NCBI GenBank assembly: GCA_035411425.1
Contig: DAONSX010000001.1
Coordinates: 1,678 to 65,677, forward strand
DNA: 64,000 bases
Direction: 5' to 3'
Source of the DNA: Bacteroidales bacterium
GTDB taxonomy: Bacteria > Bacteroidota > Bacteroidia > Bacteroidales > TTA-H9
Shown one piece after another: positions 1-5,579 of this stretch. Numbering within the stretch: the first letter of the stretch is position 1; each line of letters begins with the position of its first letter. Made by a program: the position numbers and the translations under genes. The notes beneath the pieces were generated by a model, which did no database searches, was not told where the DNA came from, and worked only from the letters and a program-made list of their open reading frames with translations.

Positions 1-3000
1 TGCACGGTGGCAATTATTTGTGAACCATCAGGCGGAAGCTGATATAATGGCTGTTTGTGACGCAAGCGATTTACAGCATCCCAAAACTTGACCATCTCAA
101 ATTTTAGATTCCCTTCTACATCTTTGTAAATAATGCAATGATGATTATTTCTGGGATCAACATAGCAATTTATATTTGGCTTTAATTTAACAGCATTTCC
201 CTTATATTCAAAAATTCTAACTGTATATACAGGAACAGGATCACCTCCTTTGCGATTTGGAAGCCGTATAGCAGGATTTTTATCCTTATCGAAAAAGAAG
301 CCATTTGGGATATTATAAGGTTTTGAAATATCGATATTAAATACATTTTGAAGTCGGTTTTCAATTAGCTTCTTAATAGTAGTATCAACGATTTTCGCTA
401 CGTGTTTATGATCTTTTATTTCGGTAATATTACATCTTACATGATATTGTTGTGGTTTAATACCTGGTAGATATTTAGCAGCCGATACTATTTTACCTTC
501 TCCCTGGTCAAGAATATAACCTCCATAGAATGTATCTTTGTGAAGTTGCCCTTTTACCGAATATCCTTTGGAAACATAAGTATCATGATTTTTACGAATT
601 CTCTTATAAACAGGCACCAAAACTCTATAGTTAGTTCGATAAGATACCAAAATTTTTGAAATTGCTTCTTTTACAGCATTTTGAAAGTGTGGGTTAGGTT
701 GTTCGAATTTGGGTTTTGGAGCCAAATTACGTTGTTTATTTTTGAGATTACCAAAATAAGTAGATAGTTTTTGATAGTAACTTGTAGTAGCAGAAGCAAT
801 TACAATGGCGTCAATGGCATGATGACGCTGGTCTTCACGATTTTTCTTCGGATCAATAATAATTTCTCCCGTCTCGGTATCCACCCTAATCAAACTTTCA
901 ATTATTTTTTCGTTATTATTTTTATCGATAATGGGCTTAGGATTTTCAATAGGTTGAAAATTAATGATTTCCTGTATTTTAAAATAAATAAAGTAACGCC
1001 CTGGTGCAACATCGGCTTTTAATTTCCAATTGTAGTCCATATCGGGACAAAATATGCCCTGGCTATCCACAGTTCCATTTAGTGTATAATAGTTTTCAGG
1101 AGGACGAGGTAAATTAAGTGCCGGTAAAAAATCAGCATTATTTACATCAAAGTCTAATAATGCAGTATAAAACCCGTTGATTAGTTGAGCTTCACAGGAA
1201 TAAATGGATGATATAAATTTTTGATTTGAAACTCTACCTTGGATGCTTATTTTATTTTCATTCTTTCTATTATCATTAATATCATTTTGTTTGATTTCAG
1301 CTTTGATTACAGGAATTATAGCCCAATAATATCCATCTTCTATTATTTTGTTCGTATTGAAATTAATTCCATGACTTTCGTTAATGAATCTTTTTTTCTT
1401 GAGATTACCCTTAATAATTATTACATTTTCGCTAATTTGGGGTTGAGGAGTAAACCTTGGAATGAATTCCTGTGCAGCCTGAGCTTTTATAAAGGCCCAA
1501 TATTTCCCAGTTTCAAAGCCATTTGCAGGAATTTTTAGTGAGGCATAGTATTTACTATCTGATTCAAAATAGAATTTATTCCCAGTCTCTTTTTTTATTT
1601 CACCAGGTATGGCTAACTCATTATCCATTGGTATGGGTTTGAAATTTATTTTTGGGATGGCTTTTTTAACATGATTGTTTTCATCAACGATAAGATAATG
1701 AATAGTTGGTTCGCTTTCGTTTATATTTAAATCATTCAAGGGAATATCGGTTATAGGTTCACTAAGAATATCGTTTAGTCCCCATAATCGGCGTAAATCG
1801 GCTATAAGTTGGCCAGGGAATGACCTAACGTCGTCGCATATTTCCCTTAAGATTTGTACTGATTTTTTGCTGATATAACGTGTGTCGTTGAGTTGTCGTT
1901 GAATAAAATCGTCAAGCATAGCGGGTTTTTTTGAAGTAAAACGCCTTGCTTTTTTATAGGGCAAGATTTGGAAGACTCTTTGCTCGATTTCTTCCCATGA
2001 ATCAGCATTCCATAAAGATTTACTACTGTTTTTTAAATAAAACTGATAAGGTGTCAATTCACCTTTCGAACGATTGAAATTGGCTTCACATAGAGTTTTA
2101 TTTCCGAATGAATCGTCTAAACTAACGGAATAGGGTATAATATGTTCAATTTGGAAAAAATTATGAGGCCCAAGCAAATCGGAAAGGCGAATGGTTTTAC
2201 CCGTATAGGGACAGATTACGATACCATTTTTCTGTTCGATTTCACTATAAAGTAGATACTTAATGATGTTATCACGTGAAGGTTTTAAGCCTGCTTCAAT
2301 GATTCTTTCGCGAGCTTCCTTATTTTTTTGTTCATTAATTGCATTTTCTTTTCTGATTTCCTGTCGCCTTTTTTTATTGTTTTTCAAATCGCGTCCAACC
2401 TCAACATGGATGCGATCAAAACAGAAATCTGGCCCAAATTCGGGCATACTACGATATTTTTTCAGTAGATAATTTACGAGCCGGCGCATTTCATTTAGCC
2501 CAATTTGGACAAGTGGATTTCTTAAATTCTCGACAGGTGAAATGTAATCTCCCTTTTTCTCTGGACCTACCTCCCGACTGGGATGGTATAATTTTAAAAA
2601 GGCTTTATCATTAGGGTTAAATCCAAAATTATTAACAGTGCTCGAAAGGTATTCTTTTATATTCTGAATAATTTCGCCTTCATGATATTTTTTGCCATTG
2701 CAAAGATCTTTGATAAATTGTTCTATATCACTATGATAATCTTTAAAATATTCCCATCTGCTGCCAAAAGTGTTTTTGATCCCTCCAAGCAAGACGGCTT
2801 GTTGAAAAATAAATCCCTTTTCAAGGAAAGGCAGTATGTTATGAATAGCTTTTAATGAGATTGATGCATACCCATCTTCAAGTGTAATTTTTGCGCTTTT
2901 TTGGGCTTTTTCTTCAGTGAAATGGTATTTTTTTATGAGCCGTTGGGTCAAAAGTTCTTCATCTTCAAAAAACATGAAATCATGCCATATTTCATGTTTA

Positions 3001-4355
3001 TTCTGCACCCATATCTCAGTAGGAAACAAACTTTTTAATTTTTTTATAGTAGGACATCCAGAAACTTTTTGGTCTGCATCGTAATTGAAATATTCATTTT
3101 GCAGCTTTAAGGCATCAATAATAACTTTAAAGTCGAAAACTTTATCCTGATATGATATTACATTTAAAACAGTTTGCCGCTGACTAGCATCAAGCGGTTG
3201 TTCCTTTCGACCGTATCGTATATTATTTATCAATTGCCATGCTCTATATAGTTCGAAATCAGGATGAGAAATTGGACAAGGGGTAGGCCCGGTTTCTATC
3301 CATTTGTTGGTAGTTTTATCAAACATTATTCTCTTTTCGAAAGTACATTTTGACAAAAGATGTTTTTGTGATCTTAATGGCCGTTGCCAGAATAAAAGAC
3401 TATCCTGACTTCTATATAATATTTCATGAGTTTCGTCATTAATTTCGATTCGTCCCCCAAAAAGAGTTTTTAAGGAGATCTGTTGTGCAACTTTTATGGT
3501 TTTCCCAGTAATAGTAACATTCTCAATGCCATATTGCAAGTAAATTTTATTGATTCTTTGCTTATTTCTTTCAGAATCATTATTCCCAGAAAGATGAAAG
3601 GATTTGAATATCGTAACAGTTTTATCATTTAATCCTAAATGTGGAGCTTGTTTTTCCCAAATAGCATGAAATTCCTTAACATACATTTCTCTTAAGGTAT
3701 ATCGGTTACGGGCTCTTAGCGGACGTCTATTCTCATCAGTTCTGTAGATATAAGTCTGATGCTCGGGAAGAATCATTTCATACAAAGTAGTTCCAAGAGT
3801 TTTATTATAACCAATTTCTTTCTCGGTCTCGAGTATACCAATGGTATTATTTTCCCCTTGATAAATCTTTCCTGAATCTTTTCCTTTTCGACTACTGTAA
3901 AAACCCCTTCTCTGAATAAAATGATAAAAGATTCTTCCGAGTTGTTCTAAGCTTAAATCTTCTTCTAATGCTTTTTTCCGCAATGCGTAAGGATTCATTT
4001 TCAACCATTCTATAAACTCAGGATCATTTGGAAACTTTCTTCCATCCGATTTCAATTCATTGTTCCAATTTTTCCATTTTTTCAATGAGTTTAATGATAA
4101 GGGGCACATTTTAAGAGGGATCAATGTCTCAAGTAATTTGATCTTACTTAATCTTTTTCTGTAATAATGTCTCCTGAGTTGTCTTTTTTCTCTTCTCTGT
4201 GCATTTTTTGAAGTCTCTTTTTCCCCCTGTCCTAAATTTTCTACTCCTTCAGGGAAAATTCTAACCCCGCAGTCAATAATTGACGCTTTTTCATCATCTA
4301 CAACTGCCCATCCAATGCTATTGACTCCTAAATCGAGTCCAAGGATTTTGCTCAT
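1..4355 (-). CDS. cas9: CRISPR-associated endonuclease Cas9, type II (II-C-like, long Bacteroidota form); partial, C-terminus beyond left edge (>=1451 aa visible)
   Basis: Hand translation of the minus-strand frame from ATG 4355 to nt 3 gives 1451 codons with no stop. Motifs in order: RuvC-I MSKILGLDLGVNSIGWAVV (D8); Arg-rich bridge helix QRREKRQLRRHYYRKR; LGRIFYHFIQRRGF; LFWQRPLRSQK; RuvC-II DRIHVEVGRD (E652); HNH CPYTGK..QIEHIIPYSVSLDDSFGNKTLCEANFNRSKG (H738); RQLNDTRYISK; RuvC-III RHHAIDAIVIA (H1178, D1182). It is missing from the ORF track because its stop codon lies left of the window. Confidence 0.93.
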   Translation of the reverse strand, partial: MSKILGLDLGVNSIGWAVVDDEKASIIDCGVRIFPEGVENLGQGEKETSKNAQRREKRQLRRHYYRKRLSKIKLLETLIPLKMCPLSLNSLKKWKNWNNELKSDGRKFPNDPEFIEWLKMNPYALRKKALEEDLSLEQLGRIFYHFIQRRGFYSSRKGKDSGKIYQGENNTIGILETEKEIGYNKTLGTTLYEMILPEHQTYIYRTDENRRPLRARNRYTLREMYVKEFHAIWEKQAPHLGLNDKTVTIFKSFHLSGNNDSERNKQRINKIYLQYGIENVTITGKTIKVAQQISLKTLFGGRIEINDETHEILYRSQDSLLFWQRPLRSQKHLLSKCTFEKRIMFDKTTNKWIETGPTPCPISHPDFELYRAWQLINNIRYGRKEQPLDASQRQTVLNVISYQDKVFDFKVIIDALKLQNEYFNYDADQKVSGCPTIKKLKSLFPTEIWVQNKHEIWHDFMFFEDEELLTQRLIKKYHFTEEKAQKSAKITLEDGYASISLKAIHNILPFLEKGFIFQQAVLLGGIKNTFGSRWEYFKDYHSDIEQFIKDLCNGKKYHEGEIIQNIKEYLSSTVNNFGFNPNDKAFLKLYHPSREVGPEKKGDYISPVENLRNPLVQIGLNEMRRLVNYLLKKYRSMPEFGPDFCFDRIHVEVGRDLKNNKKRRQEIRKENAINEQKNKEARERIIEAGLKPSRDNIIKYLLYSEIEQKNGIVICPYTGKTIRLSDLLGPHNFFQIEHIIPYSVSLDDSFGNKTLCEANFNRSKGELTPYQFYLKNSSKSLWNADSWEEIEQRVFQILPYKKARRFTSKKPAMLDDFIQRQLNDTRYISKKSVQILREICDDVRSFPGQLIADLRRLWGLNDILSEPITDIPLNDLNINESEPTIHYLIVDENNHVKKAIPKINFKPIPMDNELAIPGEIKKETGNKFYFESDSKYYASLKIPANGFETGKYWAFIKAQAAQEFIPRFTPQPQISENVIIIKGNLKKKRFINESHGINFNTNKIIEDGYYWAIIPVIKAEIKQNDINDNRKNENKISIQGRVSNQKFISSIYSCEAQLINGFYTALLDFDVNNADFLPALNLPRPPENYYTLNGTVDSQGIFCPDMDYNWKLKADVAPGRYFIYFKIQEIINFQPIENPKPIIDKNNNEKIIESLIRVDTETGEIIIDPKKNREDQRHHAIDAIVIASATTSYYQKLSTYFGNLKNKQRNLAPKPKFEQPNPHFQNAVKEAISKILVSYRTNYRVLVPVYKRIRKNHDTYVSKGYSVKGQLHKDTFYGGYILDQGEGKIVSAAKYLPGIKPQQYHVRCNITEIKDHKHVAKIVDTTIKKLIENRLQNVFNIDISKPYNIPNGFFFDKDKNPAIRLPNRKGGDPVPVYTVRIFEYKGNAVKLKPNINCYVDPRNNHHCIIYKDVEGNLKFEMVKFWDAVNRLRHKQPLYQLPPDGSQIIATV
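845..1775 (-). other. Insertion of about 300 aa within the Cas9 RuvC-III region (between LRRLWGL and NREDQRHHAIDA)
   Basis: W858-G-L is encoded at nt 1784-1776 and H1178 at nt 824-822, so about 315 residues separate motifs that are roughly 10 residues apart in NmeCas9 and CjCas9 as I recall them. The frame is continuous, so this is not an IS or intein-like disruption. It contains three related modules: GKYWAFIKAQ...VIIIKGNL, GYYWAIIPVI...KISIQGRV, GRYFIYFKIQ...KIIESLIRV. Confidence 0.7.
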
Positions 4356-4419
4356 AATTGATTAATTTTTAAATTATTAGATTTAATTTTAGATTTCTGA
4401 GTGTGGTTTGTCCAGTTAA

Positions 4420-4427
4420 TACCTTTG
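4420..4427 (+). promoter_or_regulatory. Candidate Bacteroidota -7 box (TACCTTTG), possible promoter for a long tracrRNA form
   Basis: Exact TAnnTTTG match. A TTTC at 4394-4397 could serve as a weak -33 element. It lies about 62 nt upstream of the anti-repeat element. Confidence 0.35.
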
Positions 4428-4492
4428 TTTTCCTTAGAAGATGGGTTAAAATTAAATATTTTTTATGAAAGTGTTGCATAATAAAAAAGTTG

Positions 4493-4500
4493 TATCTTTG
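4493..4500 (+). promoter_or_regulatory. Candidate Bacteroidota -7 box (TATCTTTG) inside the anti-repeat element, possible promoter for a short tracrRNA form
   Basis: Exact TAnnTTTG match. It would place the transcription start near 4507, giving an RNA of about 86 nt that ends at the T7 tract. Confidence 0.4.
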
Positions 4501-4567
4501 TTGACGAAGATTATTCCAATCTTATCTTATCACAACAAGGCTATATGCCGAAGGACTTAGTCCTATG

Positions 4568-4592
4568 CCCCTGCTTCGGTAGGGGTTTTTTT
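4568..4592 (+). terminator. Rho-independent terminator of the tracrRNA
   Basis: A 7-bp stem CCCCTGC/GTAGGGG (one G-U pair) closes a TTCG tetraloop and is followed by seven T. Confidence 0.8.
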
Positions 4593-4784
4593 AGTTTGTG
4601 ACTTTATCCTTTCCATTTGATCCTACCGGTTAAGTCGGAGATTTATTGATTTAATAAAATCAGTAATCTTCGTGTCGTAGCTCATTTATTAAATTTCTAT
4701 AAAGGTAGCACAAATGTCTTCGTCAAAGATGTTTTTTTGCAAAATTGTCCGGAATCTCTTTGTTTTGCAGAAATTCAGGGTTAG

Positions 4785-5579
4785 ATGTTAATAGATAAGG
4801 ATGAACCAATTTGCTGTTATTTCGAGAATCTTTCGAGATTTGACGGGGAAATTCTGCATTTTGTTTCCACACGAAGGTTTCTAAAAGATCAGCAGTTTTC
4901 CATTTCCTTCAATGGTTCTTTGTCGAAAGATAGAGTAAGAGTAAACCGAAAAGTCCTTTTCTCGAAATTTGGACTCGATGTGAGTAGTTCTGTGTTTACC
5001 ACACAGGTTCATGGAAACAAGGTGGAGCGCATTTCAATAAAAGAGAAGGGCAGGGGTGTCAACGAAGTTTTAAAAACCTGCCTTGGCAGCGATGGCATGA
5101 TAACGCAACATCAGGAGATTTGTCTGGTTATTCAAATGGCTGATTGCGTTCCCCTGTTATTTTTTGATCCTATAAAAAAGGTTATAGCTACTGCCCACGC
5201 TGGTTGGAGAGGAACTGTAATGAAAATTGGCGCAAAAGTTATCGAAGAGTTTCGTAATGTTTACGATTCGGACCCGGCAGATATTTTGGCAGGCATTGGG
5301 CCATCCATCGGGCCATGTTGCTATGAAGTAGGGAATGAGGTCATAAGCAAAGTGGAAGAAGCCTTTCGTGATACCAAAGGCATTTTGCTGAATCATCCCA
5401 AATTTTCTCGGCCCGTATTCGACTTATGGGAAGCCAATCGAAGAATTTTGATAGAAAAAGGCATAAATCCCCGCAATATCGAAATGGCGAACCTTTGCAC
5501 GCGTTGTCATTCAGATATGTTTTTCTCGGCTCGTGCTGGCGATGAAGGCCGTTTTGGTTCTTTCATTATGTTGAAATAA
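4785..5579 (+). CDS. pgeF: Peptidoglycan editing factor PgeF / YfiH (polyphenol-oxidase-like, DUF152) family protein
   Basis: 264-aa ORF with the family motifs HAGWRGT, GPSIGPCCYEVG and CTRCHSDMFFSARA. Confidence 0.85.
   Translation: MLIDKDEPICCYFENLSRFDGEILHFVSTRRFLKDQQFSISFNGSLSKDRVRVNRKVLFSKFGLDVSSSVFTTQVHGNKVERISIKEKGRGVNEVLKTCLGSDGMITQHQEICLVIQMADCVPLLFFDPIKKVIATAHAGWRGTVMKIGAKVIEEFRNVYDSDPADILAGIGPSIGPCCYEVGNEVISKVEEAFRDTKGILLNHPKFSRPVFDLWEANRRILIEKGINPRNIEMANLCTRCHSDMFFSARAGDEGRFGSFIMLK

Follow-up and report, generated by a model that had tools for sequence, protein, structure and literature searches.

Positions ~4505-4592 (+) of the window, by which we mean the whole 64-kb stretch of DNA analysed here (C1:1678-65677, from a genome of 90 contigs and 2.47 Mb), very probably encode the tracrRNA of a type II-C cas9-cas1-cas2 system, a reading drawn from sequence comparison. 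The stretch combines the properties by which type II tracrRNAs are recognised: an anti-repeat that can pair with the CRISPR repeat of its locus, adjacency to cas9, the characteristic AA/GGC placement of the nexus and a Rho-independent terminator. PMC6546382 puts the nexus stem-loop 1-3 nt (A or AA) past the hybrid region, with a stem that starts with G and often with GGC, and the AA junction with such a stem is general among II-C systems. The elements of the gene and its surroundings in the window are as follows:

4420-4427 (+), second TAnnTTTG box TACCTTTG, an exact motif match 73 nt upstream of the first box and a possible promoter of a long tracrRNA form
4489-4536 (+), 48-nt stretch GTTGT...ACAAC, read from the sequence
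4493-4500 (+), sigma-A "-7" promoter box TATCTTTG, an exact match to the Bacteroidota consensus TAnnTTTG
4505-4592 (+), predicted tracrRNA transcript of ~87-88 nt, with the start taken from the promoter box and the 3' end from the terminator and T7 (covariance model match 4507-4593)
4512-4536 (+), anti-repeat proper, from RNAcofold pairing with repeat nt 1-27
4537-4538 (+), AA junction, from sequence, fold and cofold
4539-4549 (+), nexus mini-hairpin GGC-UAUAU-GCC, from sequence, fold and cofold
4552-4564 (+), hairpin 2, AGGAC-UUA-GUCCU, in the MFE and cofold structures
4568-4585 and 4586-4592 (+), intrinsic terminator with a 7-8 bp G+C-rich stem, CCCCTGC-TTCG-GTAGGGG, then U7, from sequence and fold

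The gene sits 134-150 nt upstream of cas9 and is divergent from it. A preliminary description of this DNA had given a distance of 134 nt to the cas9 ATG and a divergent orientation, both of which are correct because the ATG lies at 4355 on the minus strand; likewise, the 48-nt stretch (4489-4536), the nexus (4539-4549), the second hairpin (4552-4564), the terminator stem (4568-4585) and the T7 tract (4586-4592) were all found exactly where it had put them. The remaining components of the locus are:

window 3-4355 (-), the N-terminal 1451 codons of cas9, with the ATG at 4355, from the ORF and profile matches
C1:520-1404 (off-window), cas1, after cas9 on the same strand, matching the type II Cas1 profile TIGR03639 with 299.7 bits
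C1:167-523 (off-window), cas2, after cas1, matching the Cas2 profile TIGR01573 with 65 bits
L001:37-166 (C1, off-window) (-), a leader of 130 nt between cas2 and the first CRISPR repeat
C1:1-36 (L001:1-36) (-), the first CRISPR repeat, inside which contig C1 starts

The full cas9 gene encodes 1543 aa, leaving the window on the left and reaching C1:1401, and its product matches the Cas9 profile TIGR01865 with 502.7 bits and has HNH_4 and RuvC_III domains. All three genes, cas9, cas1 and cas2, are full-length and the order is cas9-cas1-cas2-leader-array, with the whole set on the minus strand and no csn2 or cas4 ORF between cas9 and the array. Within a collection of 5.8 billion proteins, the best Cas9 matches were 44-49% identical, the closest being 49%, and a single-protein Cas9 search of genome contigs returned zero relatives. 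The genome also encodes an RNase III (C31, 178.6 bits).

In the mechanism that we propose, transcription would run from ~5 nt past the TATCTTTG box to the UUCG-capped terminator and its U7, and positions 4512-4536 of the resulting RNA would pair with the first 27 nt of every 36-nt repeat in a pre-crRNA that is predicted to be co-directional with cas9. By analogy with known type II systems, the 23-bp duplex would be a plausible substrate of host RNase III, and Cas9 may be expected to bind not only this duplex but also the AA junction, the nexus (GGC-UAUAU-GCC) and both 3' hairpins. The dual guide so formed would direct the 1543-aa Cas9.

The CRISPR array lies 1.64 kb to the left of the window edge. 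The repeat at L001:1-36 (-) reads GTTGTGGTTTGATAAGAAATTGGAATAGAAGACATT and is 36 nt long, and a terminal repeat that ends in TTT was found at C11:4-39 (+) (L002:4-39), 3 nt from the start of that contig; the first gene past the array on contig C11 (L002:227-853 (+)) encodes a PRiA4_ORF3-like (plasmid pRiA4b ORF-3-like) protein. Using the first 33 nt of the repeat as a query, we recovered 36 public metagenome contigs with the exact repeat, in 2-74 copies each and nearly all at a period of 66. Five sludge metagenome contigs (L147, L157, L163, L176 and L178) carry complete arrays, running from the C1 leader through 43-74 repeats to the C11 flank. Internal repeats end in ATT (1196 copies), as against the TTT of the terminal repeat, and spacers are 30 nt long in 1026 of 1172 cases, with 486 unique spacers in all. 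The arrays fall into two lineages, L176/L157/L178 and L147/L163, which have zero spacers in common, and this indicates recent acquisition. A comparison of the 74-repeat array of L176 with 50,697 phage records gave no match.

The preliminary description had made its case depend on the existence of an array with a complementary repeat, and such an array is present, at the ends of C1 and C11 and on those public contigs. It had also recommended a genome search for its predicted repeat; run with the 48-mer and with 24-30-nt parts of it at up to 20% substitutions, this search matched only the tracrRNA gene, and the real repeat was located at C1 and C11. A de novo k-mer periodicity scan of the genome likewise found no array, because the assembly retains just two repeat copies, at contig ends. 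Contigs from activated-sludge DNA runs link the C1 leader to the C11 flank via one repeat. We considered and rejected a single-repeat allele as the source of these contigs and read them as a graph collapse of the array, since complete arrays exist in other assemblies. Thus, the array-less look of the genome is an assembly artefact: the array is real and large, and was lost as its repeats break assemblies. The 36-nt repeat unitig reached a depth of 1592, compared to 19.6 for the flank, in RNA run X18, and 155 compared to 22.9 in RNA run X15; we dropped this depth as a signal of expression, since 43-74 copies per array suffice to cause it.

With the repeat in hand, its predicted form could be compared with the real one. 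The predicted start, GTTGTGATAAGATAAGATTGGAAT, came near the real GTTGTGGTTTGATAAGAAATTGGAAT, with the blocks GTTGTG, GATAAGA and TTGGAAT in common, but missed it at a 4-nt block (GTTT as opposed to ATAA) and by a 2-nt insertion. Short sequences at 4664-4673 and 4717-4730 that resemble decayed repeats match just the predicted form (the complement of 4504-4514), a stretch absent from the real 36-nt repeat, and their likeness is probably due to chance. The predicted length of up to ~48 nt did not hold: the repeat is 36 nt long here and in 18 of 18 related loci with arrays among the matches listed. The assignment to the long-repeat Bacteroidota type falls as well, given a 36-nt repeat at a period of 66 with 30-nt spacers and a duplex with an internal loop and a bulge.

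RNAcofold of the repeat with the 104-nt element gave -57.2 kcal/mol and 23 bp in blocks of 8+7+8, in which repeat nt 1-8 pair with 4529-4536, nt 11-17 with 4520-4526 and nt 20-27 with 4512-4519. Between the first two blocks, repeat U9 and U10 lie opposite U4528 and U4527 in a U.U/U.U internal loop, a mismatch block that also occurs in relatives, and between the second and third an AA bulge is formed on the crRNA side at repeat nt 18-19. Within this cofold the nexus, hairpin 2 and the terminator fold as the preliminary description had drawn them. Its anti-repeat was too long, however, and its first 12-16 nt do not belong to the anti-repeat: only 4512-4536 of the 48-nt stretch pairs with the repeat, nothing 5' of 4511-4512 was paired in the RNAcofold structure, and 4489-4504 holds the -7 box. 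An internal loop of tandem G.A purine mismatches, with the 5' end of the tracrRNA facing repeat nt 28-34, was considered and dropped because it fails in other loci.

The fit between repeat and anti-repeat is specific to the locus. Paired with its own anti-repeat the repeat reached -26.9 kcal/mol, compared to a mean of -15.0 kcal/mol with 11 foreign anti-repeats (rank 1 of 12), and in 11 of 12 loci the cognate anti-repeat came first or second for its own repeat. Furthermore, anti-repeats co-vary with their own repeats across loci. Duplex energy is not unique within the window, where two unrelated coding sites reached -28.6 and -27.1 kcal/mol compared to -29.0 kcal/mol for the tracrRNA site, and we therefore rejected it as a decisive detector, since G.U-rich chance pairing in coding DNA scores nearly as well.

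The 104-nt stretch is also folded more stably than its composition alone would give, with an MFE of -31.2 kcal/mol compared to -19.8 +/- 2.8 kcal/mol for shuffled sequences (z = -4.0; 0 of 200 shuffles as good). A covariance model, R1, built from an alignment, A1, of 90 sequences, had a single match in the 64-kb window, at 4507-4593 (+) with 90.2 bits and an E-value of 2e-19, which was also the single match in the 2.47-Mb genome; the sequence itself is among the 90 behind R1, so that its score is partly high by construction. Searches against Rfam gave no match to a tracrRNA family even at E-values up to 10, only sub-threshold chance matches, and an exact-string literature search for the scaffold sequence retrieved no paper. 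Metatranscriptome contigs from two runs, available in assembled form only, span the tracrRNA region at a depth like that of the cas genes, a depth to be read with strand and ends unreadable and with DNA carry-over possible. In these assemblies contigs break at L001:6201-6231, a 31-mer common to the tracrRNAs of other organisms.

To place the element among its relatives, we scanned one genome per species with an exact pattern for the nexus region, which gave at least 118 stretches; about 100 of at least 122 matching stretches are true tracrRNA loci. Among the matches listed, these loci span Prevotella, Alistipes, Prolixibacteraceae, Marinilabiliales, Flavobacteriales, Balneolaceae and others, and they have a common scaffold, ...UCUUAUCACAA(U/C)-AA-GGCUAUAUGCC-GAAGG-hairpin-terminator. 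The tracrRNA proposed in the preliminary description, with its AA junction, GGC...GCC nexus, second hairpin and UUCG-capped intrinsic terminator, is thus one instance of a scaffold conserved in ~100 loci among these matches. In 18 of 18 loci with an array inside an 8-kb stretch, again among the matches listed, the repeat is 36 nt long, starts with GTTGTG and lies on the strand opposite the tracrRNA. The loci reached via Cas9 relatives (L011, L012, L013, L015 and L017), with Cas9 identities of 45-49% among these relatives, agree with this arrangement: each has a divergent small RNA directly upstream of cas9, the 5' part of which matches its own 36-nt repeat and the 3' part of which reads ...ACAA(U/C)-AA-GGC..GCC-GAAGG-hairpin-terminator.

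Paired positions have changed together across the alignment. The terminator shows changes on both sides at 7 of 7 pairs across the 90 loci, with 99.2% of cells paired, and in hairpin 2, where 92.6% of cells are paired, the two inner pairs are altered on both sides in 26 and 16 of the 90 sequences. When the 3' partners were slid by 1-3 columns, pairing in A1 fell to 37-51%, compared to 97.3% of cells overall when unslid, and the covariation score was 0.352 compared to 0.117 for shuffled alignments, with 0 of 500 shuffles equal to it. The nexus columns of A1 were set by the search pattern, so invariance there is built in; the GGC...GCC nexus is also kept in loci found without the pattern (L012 and L013). 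At L013:3102-3202 (-), in genome G049, a palindromic insertion, CTTGC GCAAG, occupies the nexus loop and leaves the GGC...GCC stem intact, which agrees with the nexus loop being an insertion hot spot, as set out in the relevant part of PMC6546382. Among 61 relatives, R1 found one match per genome in nine; in eight of these nine it directly adjoins the upstream side of a cas9 and points away from the gene, and in the remaining one it falls where a 2.5-kb contig ends. The loci outside the model scored 98 bits (L012) and 44 bits (L013).

The start of the transcript was placed from the promoter box. Of 100 homologous loci among the matches listed, 76 have a TAnnTTTG box whose start lies 25-70 nt ahead of the AAGGC anchor, with a background for this motif of 0.59 per kb per strand; the offset of the box is -44 here and -44 to -47 in the closest relatives. 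In Flavobacterium, where start sites have been mapped, the TAnnTTTG box occupies positions -12 to -5 with respect to them (PMC9723704). Applied to the box at 4493-4500, this spacing gives a +1 at 4505-4506 and an RNA of ~87 nt, and transcription of the tracrRNA probably starts near these positions. Positions 4489-4504, a part of the 48-nt stretch, are probably not transcribed, because the -7 box lies there and relatives have conserved it at this offset. The 48-nt stretch would then probably consist of ~16 nt of promoter or otherwise untranscribed DNA, an unpaired 5' end of ~7 nt and the 25-nt pairing segment.

The predicted 5' end has a property of its own. In 36 of 100 loci among the matches listed, the predicted tracrRNA opens with 6-7 nt, (A/G)UAAGAU, that form a perfect complement to the AUCUUA(U/C) segment within its own anti-repeat; the same count in a control region gave 1 of 100. 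Of 32 loci with a recognisable 5' arm, 26 have it beginning 5-6 nt past the promoter box, which is the site of the mapped Flavobacterium starts, and where the arm has G the anti-repeat has C in 10 of 10 cases. At the present locus the arm is weaker, AAGAU (4507-4511), and pairs with AUCUU at 4519-4523 or at 4524-4528. In free tracrRNA the 5' end might thereby close into a hairpin, masking part of the anti-repeat for as long as no crRNA repeat displaces it, an idea that we put forward tentatively and consider improbable for now; if true, such a hairpin would be a built-in gate or stabiliser.

The position of the start also bears on the possibility that the tracrRNA extends further in the 5' direction, with transcription beginning at or before 4489, or at ~4432 from the TACCTTTG box, in which case the whole 48-nt stretch would be RNA, maybe in a long isoform that serves a separate function. 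The second exact TAnnTTTG match, at 4420-4427 on the same strand, speaks for such a form, as does S. pyogenes, for which the part of PMC6546382 on this organism describes long and short tracrRNAs made from two promoters. Yet a box in the -120 to -116 bin occurs at the present locus only, 1 of 100 among the matches listed, so the box at 4420-4427 is not conserved, whereas the inner box keeps its offset in relatives and the 5' arm follows it by 5-6 nt in most loci that have one. Moreover, 4489-4511 would stay unpaired with the real repeat, and in the MFE structure of the long form 4496-4503 pairs with 4533-4540, occupying the last four bases of the anti-repeat, the AA junction and the first two bases of the nexus stem. 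We thus regard a 5'-longer tracrRNA as unlikely and retain the start near 4505-4506.

An intact RNA gene could also belong to a system that is silent or restrained, through repression, an anti-CRISPR or loss of interference, so that the tracrRNA is conserved but idle. Three spacers match their own genome at 30 of 30 positions (G000 C65:9038-9067, C15:10701-10730 and C14:21006-21035), in rpiB, a beta-eliminating lyase gene and an acyltransferase gene, none of them an obvious mobile element. Two of the three, both aimed at genes of housekeeping type, are retained mid-array in 8-9 independent public contigs, and the third comes from one RNA-run contig only; the 3' flanks of the three self-protospacers have no PAM-like motif in common. 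Such retained spacers could point to a system that part of the cells keep restrained or inactive, and a canonical promoter was found neither for the array nor for cas9, the exact TAnnTTTG box being absent from the cas9 strand upstream of cas9 (window 4356-4800 (-)), from the array leader (L001:37-166 (-)) and from the repeat. Against an idle system stand the size of the arrays (43-74 repeats), the diversity of their 486 unique spacers and the lack of common spacers between lineages, the full-length cas9, cas1 and cas2, and the anti-repeat, which is still the best fit to the repeat among the 12 tested. Self-matching spacers at about this frequency are, moreover, a known phenomenon. A silent system therefore seems to us less likely again than a 5'-longer RNA; a separate notion, suggested by the self-matching spacers, that the system has some non-immune, self-directed use, is doubtful to about the same degree as the closed 5' hairpin. 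That the element has nothing to do with CRISPR and is a generic small RNA, a leader of pgeF or a mere terminator is hardly credible. It does lie ~190 nt upstream of pgeF (4785-5579) on the same strand, and it matches no Rfam family, but upstream there is no plus-strand gene that the terminator could serve, and the RNA accompanies cas9 and not pgeF: relatives carry unrelated genes on the pgeF side, the match to the model lies beside cas9 in eight of nine genomes that have one, and the 5' part of the RNA is complementary to, and co-varies with, its own CRISPR repeat.

A tracrRNA of a type II-C system therefore remains the reading that we favour, and its scaffold has described counterparts. In the part of Faure et al. 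2018 that treats the "Bacteroides" branch4 (PMC6546382), tracrRNAs of this group have an AA junction followed by the nexus, the stem of which has GG at its base, and the stretch that joins nexus to terminator is unusually conserved. As far as that part of the description goes, the present scaffold fits the group, with 36-nt repeats and 90 bits to model R1. Within the group, the present locus and its nearest relatives (L012, L015, L017, L105 and L133) have ACAAC in place of ACAAU before the junction, and their duplex of ~23 bp over repeat nt 1-27 compares with ~20 nt in the Prevotella/Alistipes type. The associated Cas9 is no more than 49% identical to its nearest relative in the protein collection.

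The preliminary description had taken SpCas9 as its point of comparison, and the same modules do occur in the same order: the SpCas9 tracrRNA likewise has an anti-repeat with a mismatch or bulge, an A-rich junction, an AAGGC nexus start, 3' hairpins and a U tract. SpCas9 belongs to subtype II-A with csn2, however, and the sequences of its anti-repeat and hairpins differ; the junction here is closer to that of the Nme1Cas9 guide, which reads ...CUACAAU-AA-GGC...GCC-GCAA and has been used experimentally (PMC6594998). The likeness to the Nme1Cas9 sgRNA (PMC6594998) extends to a repeat start of GUUGU(A/G)G, an anti-repeat end of ...ACAA(U/C), the AA junction, GGC...GCC followed by G(C/A)AA, and a G+C-rich terminal hairpin. 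The two differ in the nexus, which is longer in Nme1Cas9 (GGCCGUCU-GAAAA-GAUGUGCC) than the 3-bp stem and 5-nt loop found here, and in the separate 5-bp hairpin ahead of the terminator, which is present here and not in Nme1Cas9. Furthermore, Nme repeats are reported to carry their own promoters, whereas no Bacteroidota-type promoter box lies inside the present repeat.

A further cluster of Bacteroidota Cas9 proteins is associated with long repeats. Chylinski 2013 described a Bacteroidetes subcluster with repeats of up to 48 nt (PMC3737331), and Gasiunas 2020 a clade X with 45-50-nt repeats and fully complementary duplexes without bulges (PMC7606464). The present locus has the phylum and the type II assignment in common with this cluster and is not a member of it, with its 36-nt repeat and its duplex interrupted by a loop and a bulge.

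Conceptually the finding is ordinary, since the tracrRNA layout is well known and the scaffold is widespread in Bacteroidota, and its value is practical: it fills in the missing parts of a type II-C system with an unusually large and divergent Cas9 (1543 aa). Now that the repeat, the register of the anti-repeat, the positions of loop and bulge and the 3' scaffold are defined, they allow the design of a single-guide RNA with which to test the enzyme. Two errors that would have entered such a guide are corrected, in that the repeat measures 36 nt instead of 48 and the anti-repeat as originally proposed begins with 16 nt that are, on the promoter evidence above, probably promoter DNA.
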